The translations under genes and the position numbers were made by a program. This document shows positions 1,806 through 41,811 of a stretch of DNA of 64,000 nucleotides, in pieces. This DNA comes from a phage. Under the pieces are notes generated by a model. The model worked only from the letters and a program-made list of their open reading frames with translations. It did not search any database and had not been told where the DNA came from. The stretch lies in sequence record OZ335962.1; one strand, written 5' to 3'. Position 1 is the stretch's first letter. Each line of letters begins with the position of its first letter.

Positions 1806-3488
1806 TTAAACCATTACAGTAAATCGACCAACTTTCTTCATTTGAAGATGCTGACCATATGCTTGTGGGTCGTGGTCTCTATGTGAAATAACAAAAACAT
1901 TAGTATTTTTTAAACTATCTAAAATAGTTGAAATAGCTTTTACACCTTCAACGTCTGTTGCTGAATCAAAAACTTCATCAAGAATTAACGTGTTTATTTT
2001 AACACCTGAAACTTTTTCAGCAATATCACGCCAAGTAAATAAAAGAGCAATATCAATTCGTGCTTTTTCGCCTTGACTGAATGAAGCATAACTAAAATCT
2101 TCACGACCACGGGATTTAATTGTCTCATTAAATTCTTCATCTAATGTAAACACATAATCCGCTTCCATTATTTTAAGATAATGATTAATCTGCTTATTAA
2201 ATAACGGAATGTACTTTTTAATAATAGCACCTTTAATACCAGAATCTTTGAGCATATCAGTCAAAATTCCTCTGTGGTATTTTTCCATTACTAAATTAGT
2301 TTTTGTCTTAACAATTTTATCAAGTTCTTCTTGAAGCAGTGCTATTTCATCAGCATGGTCAATAAACTCGGATGATGCTTTTTCTATAGCCGCTTTAACT
2401 TTTTTAGCTTTATCTACCGTCGTGATTAGAGATTGCTTTTTATTGCGAATATCATTCGCCAACGTCTGCTGGGTTTTAATATTATCTCGGTATTCATCAA
2501 CAAGAACTTTTAAATTATCACGATGTGTTGAAAGCTGTTCGAACGAATGTGTGCATTCAGAAACTTTATCTTTAATTTTAGAAACAACTTTATCACCGGA
2601 ACTTAATTGTGACAAACAGGTTGGACATAATCCACCTTCGTGATACATATTAATGACTTTATTATACGAGTCAATTTTTGATTTAATTAAAAATGCTTCT
2701 TGACCGATTTTATTAAATGCATCAGTCGGGTCTTCATCCAAAACAATATTAACTAATCTTTCATTAGCTTCTTCTATTTCCGATTTTAACGTTCTAGCTT
2801 CTTTTGCCAAATCATCATACATATTCTGCAGACGAGTAAGGTTATCACCAGTTAATTTTTTCTGGCGTTCAACGTTATCATTATATATTTTAATTTGCTG
2901 GATAATACTATCTTTTTTAACATCAAGCACTTGGTTTTGTGAATTTAATTCACGTATTAGTGCTTTATTAAGCTTATCCATTTCAGCTAATGTTCCTACC
3001 TCGAGTAGGTCTTCGACGAGTTTTCTTCTTGCAGGAGTGGATAAGCCCATAAAAGGGGTATATCCAGCCGTGCCGAGTACGACGATCTGTTTGAAACTGG
3101 CGTATGACATTCCGATAAGCTGTTCAAATTCTGCTTGGAAATCTTTACTGCTGGCAGATTCATTAAGACGTGTACCGTTAACGGTGATTTCGAAAACATT
3201 CGGTTTTTGTCCTCTTTTGATATAGTACTTTTTCTCATCATATTCCATCCACAGTTCAACTAAAAGTTCTTTCTTATTTGTGCTGTTTATTAATTGACCT
3301 TTCTTTACATCACGAAATGGCTTGCCAAAAAGCCCAAATGTGATGGCTTCTAACATAGTAGACTTACCACCGCCATTTCGTCCAGTAATAAGAGTTTTTT
3401 GAACCTTATCTAGTTGAATGTCAATAGGATTTCCACCTACTGACATTATATTTTGATACCTAACTCGGTTTAGTTTAAAATTCTTCAC
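1806..3488 (-). CDS. 46: Recombination endonuclease subunit gp46 (SbcC/Rad50-like ATPase)
   Basis: 560-aa ORF, N-terminal P-loop GRNGGGKST, long coiled-coil middle, C-terminal Walker B LILDEVFD; GTG start at 3488-3486 preceded by SD aaggaa and overlapping upstream stop (GTGA). Confidence 0.9.
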   Translation of the reverse strand: MKNFKLNRVRYQNIMSVGGNPIDIQLDKVQKTLITGRNGGGKSTMLEAITFGLFGKPFRDVKKGQLINSTNKKELLVELWMEYDEKKYYIKRGQKPNVFEITVNGTRLNESASSKDFQAEFEQLIGMSYASFKQIVVLGTAGYTPFMGLSTPARRKLVEDLLEVGTLAEMDKLNKALIRELNSQNQVLDVKKDSIIQQIKIYNDNVERQKKLTGDNLTRLQNMYDDLAKEARTLKSEIEEANERLVNIVLDEDPTDAFNKIGQEAFLIKSKIDSYNKVINMYHEGGLCPTCLSQLSSGDKVVSKIKDKVSECTHSFEQLSTHRDNLKVLVDEYRDNIKTQQTLANDIRNKKQSLITTVDKAKKVKAAIEKASSEFIDHADEIALLQEELDKIVKTKTNLVMEKYHRGILTDMLKDSGIKGAIIKKYIPLFNKQINHYLKIMEADYVFTLDEEFNETIKSRGREDFSYASFSQGEKARIDIALLFTWRDIAEKVSGVKINTLILDEVFDSATDVEGVKAISTILDSLKNTNVFVISHRDHDPQAYGQHLQMKKVGRFTVMV

Positions 3489-31397: not shown

Positions 31398-31727
31398 TCA
31401 ATTAGAAAATAAATTTATCCAAGATTGTTCTTTAATTAAAAATGGCTCAGAATCATATGCCATTAAACTTTGTGTGATTAGTCCTTTAAAAGGCCCATCA
31501 ATAAATTCCATAGTAAAATATGGAATTTTATTCATTAGTCGTGCATTAGGAGCAGTGCACAAAACTCTGCATCCTTTGAATACGCCTTTTTGTAATTTGT
31601 ACTGCTTAGGATAAAATTCGCTCAAGACGTTATTATTTGCCAAAATTTCAAAATGATTCACCAACTTATTTTTAATAGTTTTTGGTGAAAAATAAAGATA
31701 TTCGAAAAGCTGTGTGTCTGTCATCAT
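31398..31727 (-). CDS. Hypothetical protein (vs.7 position)
   Basis: ATG 31727-31725 overlapping upstream stop (ATGA); ORF-track extension overlaps upstream gene by 55 nt. Confidence 0.45.
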   Translation of the reverse strand: MMTDTQLFEYLYFSPKTIKNKLVNHFEILANNNVLSEFYPKQYKLQKGVFKGCRVLCTAPNARLMNKIPYFTMEFIDGPFKGLITQSLMAYDSEPFLIKEQSWINLFSN

Positions 31728-32311
31728 TGCATTCCAATCACAAAAAATTGAGGACGAGTAATACCGCCAATGCAGCATTTACTGTTGCAGCAGTGTTGCA
31801 CAGTTTCAATATGAATATCATAAATTTTATCCATATCAGGAGATTTAACAGGCTCATCGATTATATACAAGATTCGAGAAAGCGATAAACCTCTGAACTT
31901 GCTACCTCTATTACCAATAAAACTACGGACAGAATCGGTAAATAAGCGGAATCGGATATCATCGCTAGAATAACGAGAAAATTCTTTTTTAATGTGGCCT
32001 GCAGAAATTTTAGCGTAAGCTGAAGTGTTAGAAAGAACAATAACTGTTCCACCATCATACAGCCAATTAGCAGCAAAATTAGTCACAGCAGTTGATTTAC
32101 CGGATTGACGTCCACCATCTAGTCGAAGTGTACAATACTGTTTGAGCAAGTCTTCAAATGGTAGGATATAATCGTTTTTACAAATTTCTTCTACTCTAGC
32201 ATCAGAATGGTGTGTAAAAGCATTCATCAGGGATAGATAAGGACCAGTTAAAAATGTTCTCATTTTATTCTCTCTAAATTTGGGCCATTCCATGGCGCGT
32301 GAATTGTCCAT
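31724..32311 (-). CDS. P-loop NTPase-like protein (vs.8 position)
   Basis: 195-aa ORF with GGRQSGKST Walker A and ILYIIDEP Walker B-like; start uncertain. Confidence 0.5.
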   Translation of the reverse strand: MDNSRAMEWPKFRENKMRTFLTGPYLSLMNAFTHHSDARVEEICKNDYILPFEDLLKQYCTLRLDGGRQSGKSTAVTNFAANWLYDGGTVIVLSNTSAYAKISAGHIKKEFSRYSSDDIRFRLFTDSVRSFIGNRGSKFRGLSLSRILYIIDEPVKSPDMDKIYDIHIETVQHCCNSKCCIGGITRPQFFVIGMQ

Positions 32312-32416
32312 TTCTGTATTTACCCATTACCGCACTTGGGCTCGACCTTATTACAGGTTGGCGGGAATCCCTCATAGAATCATGAAGTCCAGCTTGTTCC
32401 CATATTTCTTATTTGC

Positions 32417-32890
32417 TTATTTGAATGATTTGACGTACTGAATAGAGCCTTTGCTATTCACGAAAGCGATTTTACCATTTTTGTTATACATGGTAGCAGT
32501 ACGCTGATAGCCATAAGTTTGCTTACCAGATTGATAACCAACTAGTGCGAAATTATCTTCACCCATTTTATTCTGCTTAGCGCGGATACGTTCATGACCG
32601 TGCGCCATAAGAACCTTAGCATCACCAGTTGCAATGGATCTACGAGTTTTTTCATCTTCAACTGTATTAACAAAGTCGTCAAATGAATCAAATTTAGCAT
32701 GAGATTTATTATACAGTTTTCCATCTACTGCATAATTATATCCCTGTACATCCATCTCAACTTCTGTACCATCATCTAATACAGCAGTGATTTTTTGACC
32801 TTTTTTAAATTTCAAAAGATCAGTAAAAGATTCAGCAATAATTTGAGAATTAATAGCTGCTTCAGTGATAAATTCTTGATATGTTTTCAT
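32417..32890 (-). CDS. Internal-protein-like protein with N-terminal capsid-targeting sequence
   Basis: 157 aa beginning MKTYQEFITEAAINSQIIAE (T4 internal-protein CTS consensus MKTYQEFIAE; I/L-x-E cleavage sites); late promoter TATAAATA 35 nt upstream. Confidence 0.6.
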   Translation of the reverse strand: MKTYQEFITEAAINSQIIAESFTDLLKFKKGQKITAVLDDGTEVEMDVQGYNYAVDGKLYNKSHAKFDSFDDFVNTVEDEKTRRSIATGDAKVLMAHGHERIRAKQNKMGEDNFALVGYQSGKQTYGYQRTATMYNKNGKIAFVNSKGSIQYVKSFK

Positions 32891-32899
32891 GTGTTTCCT

Positions 32900-33316
32900 T
32901 TAAATGTAAATATTTTTGCCGTAGTATTTATACCAGTGTGGCTTCATTAAAATTTTTTCATCGAGTCGTTGTTGACTCAATTTAATAGCCGATTTGCATT
33001 GGTTATAATCATTTTTCCATTCTGCTGGAATATCGCTGATGTCAGGAACTTCAGTATCTTTTATACTAAACCCACGTTTTAAGCATTCCGCTATAATGTC
33101 TGATTGACGCTTTCGCAAAAATTCTAACTTATCATAAAAGAACGTAACATGACCAGAACCTAAAATAAACTCGGAAGATATTTTAAAATCTTTAACCCGC
33201 TTACCATTTGCCACATGTTTACGAACTATACCAAAAACACGTGGCAATTCACGGTATTCTGCGATTAAATGTTGATCAGCAAGTTCAGATACTAAAGTCA
33301 AATTAATACGAGTCAT
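32900..33316 (-). CDS. denV: Endonuclease V (pyrimidine-dimer DNA glycosylase) DenV
   Basis: 138-aa [32 protein letters not shown]...; matches recalled T4 DenV. Confidence 0.9.
32925..32932 (-). promoter_or_regulatory. Late promoter (TATAAATA) for internal-protein-like gene 32417..32890
   Basis: Exact TATAAATA on minus strand, inside the 3' end of denV, 35 nt upstream of ATG 32890. Confidence 0.5.
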
Positions 33317-33340
33317 TTTATCCCTCCTAGAATTGTGAAT

Positions 33341-33369
33341 ATACTATCACAATTCTAGGAGAAAGTAAA
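33341..33369 (-). promoter_or_regulatory. Early promoter of denV inside a 15-bp perfect inverted repeat
   Basis: Minus strand (G)TTTACT - 17 nt - TAGTAT; IR ctcctagaattgtga (33324-33338) / tcacaattctaggag (33347-33361) flanks the -10. Confidence 0.55.
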
Positions 33370-33374
33370 CAACT

Positions 33375-33905
<531 letters not shown>

Positions 33906-34361
33906 TTAAAAGAGGCTGTTCATTATTCGGTAAAGTGAAGGACCCATCACATATTGCCACTGAGTACGAGGAATAAGAGCAAAAGCATCCATCTCTGGAA
34001 TCATAACGCCATCTTTATTTTCAAAATAAGACTCGCAATGGCAATTTCTAAACATCTCATGCTCTACTGGAATCGTATAATAAAATAACTGTAAGTCTTT
34101 ATTACTAGAATATTTAAATACACCTAAGTCTTCTAGAAGGTCTGGATTATAATCGATAAAACCAGTCTCTTCTGAGCATTCTCTTTTTGCAGCTTCCAGT
34201 GCATTCAAATCAGAACTTTCTACACGCCCCTTTGGAATATCCCAGCGATGTGCCATCATTCCAGGTTTACGAGAACCGGTAACTCGTCCCATAAATAAAT
34301 CTTTATCTTCTGTCATAAAGATAATACCAGCTGATAATGTTTTCATTTTAATTTCCTGCAT
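33906..34361 (-). CDS. nudE: Nudix hydrolase NudE
   Basis: 151 aa with Nudix box GRVESSDLNALEAAKRECSEETG. Confidence 0.8.
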   Translation of the reverse strand: MQEIKMKTLSAGIIFMTEDKDLFMGRVTGSRKPGMMAHRWDIPKGRVESSDLNALEAAKRECSEETGFIDYNPDLLEDLGVFKYSSNKDLQLFYYTIPVEHEMFRNCHCESYFENKDGVMIPEMDAFALIPRTQWQYVMGPSLYRIMNSLF

Positions 34362-34831
34362 TCAGTGATAAAATTATTTAAATTTTGAGCATATTTCTTT
34401 TCATCAAAAATCTTTTGTTGTCTGCGCATCCGCCATGGCATTTCAATGAACATGTACCATATTCCTGATAATATTGATGCTGTAAAAATATTAACAAGTA
34501 TAATTAAAAGAATCCAATCTCCCGTTCTGCCTACTGGACTTTCTCCAAAGAAGCAAAATACAAATGATGTCACAGGAAAACTAATAATATACCACAGAAT
34601 CATAATCTTATCTGTGAACCAATCAGCGTTCGTTAATTTAGCGCGACCGTTTCGAATACACACGAATTTATCATCTGTCGCAGTAGATGGCTTAGCTGCT
34701 TGATATCCCATTCTAAACTCCCTAATTAATCGTTTCTTTGTATCTTCAGAACAGCCGCTCCAGTCAACTCTATCAACTGAAATGCCATCGTCCCCATCAT
34801 CTAAATCATACCAGCGAGTTTTTAAAATCAT
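34343..34831 (-). CDS. Membrane protein (soluble N-domain plus 2 TM helices); full-length copy of a tandemly duplicated gene start
   Basis: 162-aa ORF; first 82 codons identical to 34832..35086. Confidence 0.5.
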   Translation of the reverse strand: MILKTRWYDLDDGDDGISVDRVDWSGCSEDTKKRLIREFRMGYQAAKPSTATDDKFVCIRNGRAKLTNADWFTDKIMILWYIISFPVTSFVFCFFGESPVGRTGDWILLIILVNIFTASILSGIWYMFIEMPWRMRRQQKIFDEKKYAQNLNNFITECRKLK

Positions 34832-35093
34832 TTAATTTATAATATACCACAGAATCATAATCTTATCTGTGAACCAATCAGCGTTCGTTAATTTAGCGCG
34901 ACCGTTTCGAATACACACGAATTTATCATCTGTCGCAGTAGATGGCTTAGCTGCTTGATATCCCATTCTAAACTCCCTAATTAATCGTTTCTTTGTATCT
35001 TCAGAACAGCCGCTCCAGTCAACTCTATCAACTGAAATGCCATCGTCCCCATCATCTAAATCATACCAGCGAGTTTTTAAAATCATTTAATTT
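34584..35093 (-). repeat. Perfect head-to-tail tandem duplication, 2 x 255 bp (34584-34838 and 34839-35093)
   Basis: Base-by-base comparison: both copies identical; flanks diverge on both sides; unit = 7 nt leader + first 82 codons of gene 34343..34831. Confidence 0.9.
34832..35086 (-). CDS. Truncated duplicate (N-terminal domain only, 84 aa) created by 255-bp tandem duplication
   Basis: Identical to the N-terminus of 34343..34831 then IIN-stop at the repeat junction; has the original SD aggaaa. Confidence 0.4.
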   Translation of the reverse strand: MILKTRWYDLDDGDDGISVDRVDWSGCSEDTKKRLIREFRMGYQAAKPSTATDDKFVCIRNGRAKLTNADWFTDKIMILWYIIN

Positions 35094-41240: not shown

Positions 41241-41474
41241 TTATTTTTTACGAAAAATTGATTTATTTTCTGCTGCCCATTTTTCAATAACTGCAGCAGG
41301 ACCAGTAACAACAATTTTATCACCGTAATCTTCTGCGGCGAGTTGACCGAAATTATCTAATGCATCACGAAGAACTCCATGAGGCATTTCACCCATTTTA
41401 TCTTTCTTGCCGGTGTAAATAAACTCAACTTTTACATCAGAAGATTCAGCGATAAATTCTTGATAAGTTTTCAT
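41241..41474 (-). CDS. Internal-protein-I-like small protein with CTS
   Basis: Begins MKTYQEFIAESSDVKVE; ATG 41474-41472 (alternative ATG 41486 adds METK); ORF-track start 41543 lies upstream of promoter 41512-41540. Confidence 0.55.
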   Translation of the reverse strand: MKTYQEFIAESSDVKVEFIYTGKKDKMGEMPHGVLRDALDNFGQLAAEDYGDKIVVTGPAAVIEKWAAENKSIFRKK

Positions 41475-41553: not shown

Positions 41554-41811
41554 TTATTTTAAATCTTCTAATCGTTTCTTCATCTTAGAACCATTTTTAG
41601 CAATTTCTCCTGCATCGGAGCATAATGCTAAAAGTGCTTTAACTTTCGTTTGGTCTCCTTTAAAAGATGAAGGATCTACTGCAGCAGCAAGTTCTTTAAT
41701 ACGAGAGAAAAGACGCTCAGCTTCAGCTAAAGCCATTCCAAGCTTTACTTCCATACCGTGGGAAGATTCAGTGATAGTAGTTTTTGCAGCAAACTCTTTG
41801 AAAGTTTTCAT
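41554..41811 (-). CDS. Internal-protein-like small protein with CTS-like N-terminus
   Basis: 85 aa beginning MKTFKEFAAKTTITESSHGMEV; SD aggaaa; own promoter 41842-41870. Confidence 0.5.
   Translation of the reverse strand: MKTFKEFAAKTTITESSHGMEVKLGMALAEAERLFSRIKELAAAVDPSSFKGDQTKVKALLALCSDAGEIAKNGSKMKKRLEDLK

Follow-up and report, generated by a model that had tools for sequence, protein, structure and literature searches.

In phage T4, the internal proteins (IPs) reach the scaffolding core by means of a capsid-targeting sequence (CTS) of about 10 residues, which can take even foreign proteins there and is trimmed by gp21; each IP, in hundreds of copies, remains with the DNA and is injected (PMC9958956, PMC3012670). 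In the T4 record X04567, residues -10 to -1 of both IPII and IPIII are annotated as the removed peptide. Several of these proteins counter host restriction: IPI* inhibits the GmrSD of strain CT596, and Ip2 and Ip3 act on one further GmrSD variant each, with no cross-protection (PMC12373910). IPIII is active in the cytoplasm even without a CTS (PMC9391042). An earlier sequence-only reading of the DNA considered here described the IPs as a poorly characterised class, a description that is partly outdated now that each of Ip1, Ip2 and Ip3 has a GmrSD target (PMC12373910). The same reading placed ipII and ipIII between denV and e in T4, and the T4 reference agrees.

The window analysed here is the whole 64,000-nucleotide stretch taken from the phage record OZ335962.1. 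It is a Tequatrovirus mosaic, with 96–98% identity to several T2/RB-type phages over 24 kb. An IP gene lies in it within the T4 ipII/ipIII locus, which runs from e to vs.8 and is one of two polymorphic IP loci. The features of this region, in ascending order of coordinates, are as follows:

31724..32311, minus strand: vs.8-like gene (phrog_1488), the downstream boundary of the IP locus
32417..32890, minus strand: coding sequence of ip4, a 157-aa precursor, from the ORF list (DUF7412, PHROG 3155)
32417..32830, minus strand: codons 21–157 and stop, the part predicted to fold, basic (pI 9.3, 15.5 kDa) and without a solved structural relative in the comparisons below
32831..32860, minus strand: codons 11–20, AAINSQIIAE, a linker with a second possible gp21 site, I-A-E↓S, recognised by its motif
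32861..32890, minus strand: codons 1–10, MKTYQEFITE, the putative capsid-targeting sequence/propeptide with a gp21-type site, I-T-E↓A, recognised by comparison with T4 IPII/IPIII
32894..32900, minus strand: AAGGAAA, the Shine-Dalgarno/ribosome-binding site for ip4, which overlaps the stop codon of denV (from the sequence)
32900..33316, minus strand: denV (endonuclease V), directly upstream of ip4 (Pfam Pyr_excise, phrog_1183)
32925..32932, minus strand: TATAAATA, the T4 late-promoter consensus, in the denV codons for W-Y-K-Y (from the sequence)
33321..33364, minus strand: hairpin with a perfect 18-bp stem in the e-denV spacer (RNA fold -32.5 kcal/mol, z = -8.4)
33375..33869, minus strand: e (lysozyme; Pfam and PHROG matches)

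The ORF at 32417..32890 is intact, lies on the minus strand, which the earlier reading had left unstated, and encodes 157 aa with MKTYQEFITEAAINSQIIAE as its first residues, and its proposed identity as a CTS-bearing internal-protein gene is borne out: databases hold it as ip4 or as an internal virion protein, and its leader, MKTYQEFITE as against MKTYQEFIAE in T4 IPII and IPIII, is identical at nine of ten residues. What did not hold was the further statement that the 157-aa body lacks recognisable similarity, as the product is matched over its full length both by PF24183 (DUF7412; E 6e-96, 319 bits versus a cut-off of 27, residues 1–157 on a 158-position model) and by phrog_3155, "internal virion protein" (E 6e-102); NCBIfam and PADLOC scans gave no match above their cut-offs. 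By tblastn, Ip4 is found in 471 of 50,697 phage records, 291 of which carry copies at least 99% identical, with T2, RB18 and RB33 encoding a protein that is 100% identical. The proteins of RB51 (99.4% identity) and ime09 (98.7%) are annotated Ip4, and the same annotation appears in RB32 (NC_008515), Shfl2 and KP182, with the RB32 and Shfl2 copies at the ip4 family position. The corresponding record counts are 261 for T4 IPIII and 198 for T4 IPII, making Ip4 the commonest of the three compared IPs at the e-vs.8 locus; in T2, which lacks Ip2 and Ip3, it is the IP that this locus encodes. In BFVD the sole significant match is UniProt Q38388, "Ip4 [Enterobacteria phage K3]", at 99% identity and a TM of 0.96. 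Q38388 is an old accession that presumably derives from the 1994 T-even IP-locus survey of Repoila et al. Across the T-even phages K3, RB32, RB51, ime09 and Shfl2, Ip4 shows 99–100% full-length identity to the window copy, the same size of 157 aa and the same leader, and the copies of other T-even phages differ from it in nothing material except the neighbouring gene. What the ORF encodes is Ip4, one of the named T-even IPs, and it sits in the polymorphic IP locus from e to vs.8; databases and the literature already contained the gene under this name, as well as its class and the shuffling at its locus. Its value as a discovery is small, being that of a named and widely annotated gene re-found in a locus known to be prone to shuffling.

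Compared to the T4 reference order of vs.8-denV-ipII-ipIII-e, the window has vs.8-ip4-denV-e: as the sequence-only reading had it, denV and e are adjacent, separated by a 58-nt spacer, and ip4 lies beyond denV. The DNA past the ip4 stop aligns with that past the T4 denV stop, and the junctions are clean. This arrangement is common to at least 165 records that cover at least 80% of a 1.9-kb query extending from vs.8 to e. In 20 IMG/VR T4-like loci oriented on denV, genes with an MKT(Y/F)xEF leader lie in the e-denV interval, in the denV-vs.8 interval or in both, with 0–3 on each side. The comparison with T4-like ipII/ipIII loci that the earlier reading had recommended, extended to about 25 related loci, points the same way: the number of CTS genes varies, they may be upstream of denV, downstream of it or both, and in most loci they flank it, as befits a known polymorphic locus. 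The gene preceding ip4 also varies, being e in T2 and Roth16, ipIII in ECML-134, and denV in the window, BW-1 and the related locus L003. Examples of the orders encountered are:

T2: e-ip4-vs.8, no denV
ECML-134: e-ipIII-ip4-vs.8, no denV
Klebsiella phage Roth16: e-ip4-like-ipIII-like
UGKSEcP2: e-ipII-denV-vs.8
Lutter: e-IP-denV-IP fragments-ipIII
NC-G: e-IP-ipIII-ipII-denV-IP

The position of ip4 is unusual relative to T4 and ordinary for the family. The claim that it occupies a different place from ipII and ipIII stands as a comparison with T4; the place itself is not a new one, since related loci vary around denV. Plasticity of the IP locus has been documented since the 1990s, and the window arrangement fits that record. 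Two side observations concern denV itself. It is missing from the locus in L197 (T2, PV648364.1, 2413..2501), L200 (ECML-134), L202 (MN04) and L203 (Roth16). In another locus, L004 (IMGVR_UViG_2974787500_000001, 2860..3015), an ip4-type denV C-terminus, KNIYI, is followed by the start of the ip4 leader, with the ip4 ORF absent; the junction, TTTAAATAACATGGGAA, resembles a precise deletion between short TTTAAA/TTCAAA repeats.

The variability just described is one of gene content. Ip4 has 13 close homologues at 61–82% identity; against the T2 copy, dS is 0.24 and dN is 0, and dN/dS is 0.10 against Roth16 and 0.135 against L016, which carry Klebsiella-/Salmonella-type orthologues. The gene is real and constrained, with Ip4 under strong purifying selection. 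Hypervariability, which had been ascribed to the internal proteins as such, is a property of the gene content of the locus and not of the Ip4 protein.

The N-terminal leader is the part of Ip4 that most directly recalls the T4 proteins. A gp21-type (L/I)-x-E↓ site is present as a sequence motif at its end, and [LIM]xE motifs occur at residues 8–10, 18–20 and 109–111. E10 is kept in at least 90% of 15 aligned homologues, and both E10 and E20 are invariant among the 13 close ones; the AlphaFold model has low confidence over residues 1–20, with pLDDT <50 at residues 10–18. To judge from the motifs, gp21 likely cleaves Ip4 after E10 and perhaps after E20 too, which by computation would reduce the 17.8-kDa precursor to 16.5 or 15.5 kDa, respectively. 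The trimmed product would have a predicted pI of 9.1–9.3 versus ~9.6 for T4 IPII/IPIII, all three being basic. A profile searched against 1.84 billion representative proteins returned only seven matches, three of them at 34–36% identity. Two of these three distant homologues start with MNF(E/K)(Q/D)FLNES, a related leader that ends in Glu, and their retention of it suggests that the Ip4 body and a cleavable N-terminal leader travel together. Only three ORFs in the 64-kb window bear such a leader, namely ip4 and two others, also on the minus strand, at 41241..41474 and 41554..41811. These two CTS-type ORFs, one of 77 aa that begins with MKTYQEFIAESSD... and one of 85 aa that begins with MKTFKEFAAKTT..., lie ~8.5 kb from ip4 in what is presumably the ipI-type locus, and neither has an NCBIfam match. 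The 85-aa ORF has no Glu at position 10, and its cleavage site would therefore differ.

How ip4 is expressed is less straightforward than a dedicated late promoter would make it. The minus-strand DNA before the gene reads ...TGG TAT AAA TAC TAC GGC AAA AAT ATT TAC ATT TAA AGGAAACAC ATG, and an exact TATAAATA is indeed present, as had been noted earlier, at 32932..32925 within the 3' end of denV, 34 nt upstream of the ip4 ATG. It is part of TGGTATAAATAC, which the window, BW-1 and L003, with ip4 directly after denV, all carry. TATAAATA is not enriched, with 13 copies in the AT-rich window versus 10.7 ± 2.8 expected; two of the motifs lie just upstream of e, at 33883..33890 and 33896..33903. The corresponding denV site is changed to TACAAATA in T4 (in the context TGGTACAAATAC) and to TATAAGTA in L004 (in the context TGGTATAAGTAT), and both lack a downstream IP gene; L004 shares the window's denV C-terminus, with ip4 apparently deleted precisely. 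A further locus, L014, has the motif in denV and no downstream IP gene, and TATAAATA is absent within 120 nt upstream of ip4 in T2, ECML-134, Roth16 and L016. The motif does not travel with ip4 and is therefore an extra promoter at best: of the late promoter claimed for ip4, the motif stands, and its absence upstream of the gene in these four phages tells against a promoter dedicated to ip4. A candidate explanation, that the synonymous TAT codon of denV is kept as an ip4 promoter, has T4 and L004 in its favor, and is weakened by L014 and the four ip4 phages that lack the motif. At most, the TATAAATA inside denV is a possible extra start site for ip4, and, on sequence grounds, the usual route of ip4 expression is plausibly read-through from promoters farther upstream, such as the two motifs before e. 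The DNA immediately before the gene is more constant: TTTAAAGGA(A/T)A(C/T)ACATG directly precedes ip4 in T2 and ECML-134, and the leader TTTACATTTAAAGGA...ATG is found before ip4 regardless of the upstream gene, encoding the last denV codons in the window. A distant metagenomic homologue, P0015, has two TATAAATA motifs directly upstream, which agrees with late expression of the Ip4 family; a PHROG scan of its neighbour genes yielded no match. A DNA-pattern scan of metagenomes for the denV 3' end (TGGTAYAAATACTACGG) gave 120 mostly chance matches, with denV encoded at two loci only.

A second candidate for control elements is the hairpin that lies between e and denV. Its sequence overlaps a promoter-like site, GTTTAC-N17-TAGTAT, and is predicted to sequester the ribosome-binding site of denV. 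At the equivalent spot between e and denV, T4 carries a hairpin of another sequence, and T2 has a cut-down copy of the hairpin upstream of ip4 that retains the 5' arm and the promoter-like site. In PMC2839356 (Arbiol et al. 2010, citing Repoila et al. 1994), a passage on the IP loci describes promoter/stem-loop cassettes that are proposed to drive the shuffling, and the hairpin in the window is probably a counterpart of these. The cassette bears on the question of whether Ip4 is packaged at all. If the CTS-like N-terminus were a relic, Ip4 could be an unpackaged cytoplasmic accessory made early from the cassette before denV. Consistent with this, in the 90 nt upstream of T2 ip4 no promoter-like element other than the cassette can be recognised, with no TATAAATA, and IPIII functions in the cytoplasm without its CTS. 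However, the leader and both Glu cleavage positions are kept even in the 34–36% identical homologues, ip4 is found only in the IP locus, a CTS alone suffices to load foreign proteins into T4 heads (PMC9958956, PMC3012670), and one distant homologue has two late-promoter motifs upstream. We consider a relic leader very improbable.

A concrete route for a packaged Ip4 can be sketched by analogy with T4. The gene would be transcribed with the e-denV block, from candidate promoters that include the late ones upstream of e, the cassette before denV and possibly the TATAAATA inside denV. MKTYQEFITE would then carry the 17.8-kDa precursor into the scaffolding core of the prohead, where the gp21 prohead protease would remove the leader by cutting after E10, and possibly after E20 as well. 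What is left, a basic product of 15.5 to 16.5 kDa, would stay with the DNA in the head and be injected at infection, where it would most probably neutralise a first-line host defence. The leading candidate for its target would be a modification-dependent type IV restriction enzyme of the GmrSD family that attacks glucosyl-hmC DNA, because T4 Ip1, Ip2 and Ip3 each block a different GmrSD variant. Packaging, cleavage, injection and an anti-defence function are what we infer for Ip4 from the T4 proteins, our literature search having found no paper that shows Ip4 in virions or injected, nor any on Ip4 genetics, and none of relevance under "Ip4" or "DUF7412".

How far the analogy extends depends on which part of the protein is compared. 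Ip4 and T4 IPII/IPIII share the 10-residue CTS leader with its Glu site, the e-vs.8 locus and a small basic product; they differ in that their bodies are unrelated, with no similarity past the leader, in that Ip4 is encoded on the other side of denV, and in that GmrSD targets are identified for Ip2 and Ip3 and none for Ip4. IPI* is likewise of the CTS-bearing IP class, and its reported fold, like that modelled for Ip4, is without obvious relatives; it differs from Ip4 in belonging to the other (ipI) locus, in showing no sequence or fold match to it, and in that its GmrSD inhibition is proven by experiment. Similarity of Ip4 to the proven GmrSD inhibitors was not found in either comparison made, with IPII/IPIII past the leader or with PDB chains at a significant level. 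AlphaFold with a 15-sequence alignment gave a mean pLDDT of 83.8 and a pTM of 0.78; with the 13 close homologues only, the mean pLDDT was an unusable 50.4, and the higher value was reached after the three 34–36% identical homologues were added. The Ip4 body is confidently modelled as a compact alpha/beta domain. A Foldseek search of this model against the PDB returned nothing at E <= 0.001, and a PDB sequence search with Ip4 gave noise, the top match being a designed propeller (E 6e-4) with no stretch that passes alone. As modelled, the Ip4 fold is without a solved structural relative in these PDB comparisons.

Because the body resembles neither IPII, nor IPIII, nor any solved structure, the argument for an anti-GmrSD role is one of analogy alone. 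Other observations count against the proposed explanation of ip4. Within Tequatrovirus the amino acid sequence is almost completely conserved, which would be unusual for an arms-race protein and speaks against Ip4 being one, and a dedicated late promoter that is not conserved, with a motif that is not enriched, also weighs against it. Moreover, when "ip4-10" from T4-like phages were tried on the active GmrSD variants, none inhibited them reproducibly (PMC12373910, Supplementary Fig. 9), with the proviso that the ip4 of that study may differ from this one; the GmrSD panel used there samples a very diverse family sparsely. Even so, we regard it as quite probable that ip4 is a member of the IP set whose product is packaged, trimmed and injected, with inhibition of a GmrSD-family enzyme as its most plausible function. 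Two departures from this account keep the injection and change the target. One, which we entertain tentatively as possible though doubtful, is that Ip4, once injected, acts as an effector whose fold has not been seen before and whose target lies beyond the GmrSD variants tested, be it an uncharacterised type IV clade or another first-line defence; if so, its near-invariance across T2-like phages would stem from a host target that is itself conserved and not from an arms race. The other, which appears rather unlikely, is that the packaged and injected protein acts on neither GmrSD nor any type IV enzyme, and instead on another early host function or defence, or on the DNA itself in condensation or ejection. 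Given its confident model without a structural relative and its strong purifying selection, Ip4 is a reasonable candidate for anti-defence screening.

Some features of the surrounding DNA may be recorded in their own right. Between ip4 and vs.8 (32312..32416), about 90 nt are conserved at the DNA level even in distant T4-like phages, with the core AAGGTCGAGCCCAAGTGCGGTAA. The T4 annotation assigns it to vs.8, there 219 aa long, as the 5' end of the gene; in the window, a minus-strand ORF of 33 aa at 32274..32375 is out of frame with the 195-aa vs.8. The conserved spacer folds no better than shuffled sequence, and an Rfam scan of 31500..34000 returned only a sub-threshold chance match to a snoRNA. 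On the other side of the locus, 34579..35088 consists of two tandem 255-nt copies, 99% identical, that repeat the 5' part of a membrane-protein gene, and the ORFs at 34343..34831 and 34832..35086 have an identical 83-residue N-terminal stretch (MILKTRWYDLDDGDD...). The duplication may be genuine or may have arisen in the assembly; at the matching place, BW-1 has a single annotated membrane-protein gene of 489 nt.
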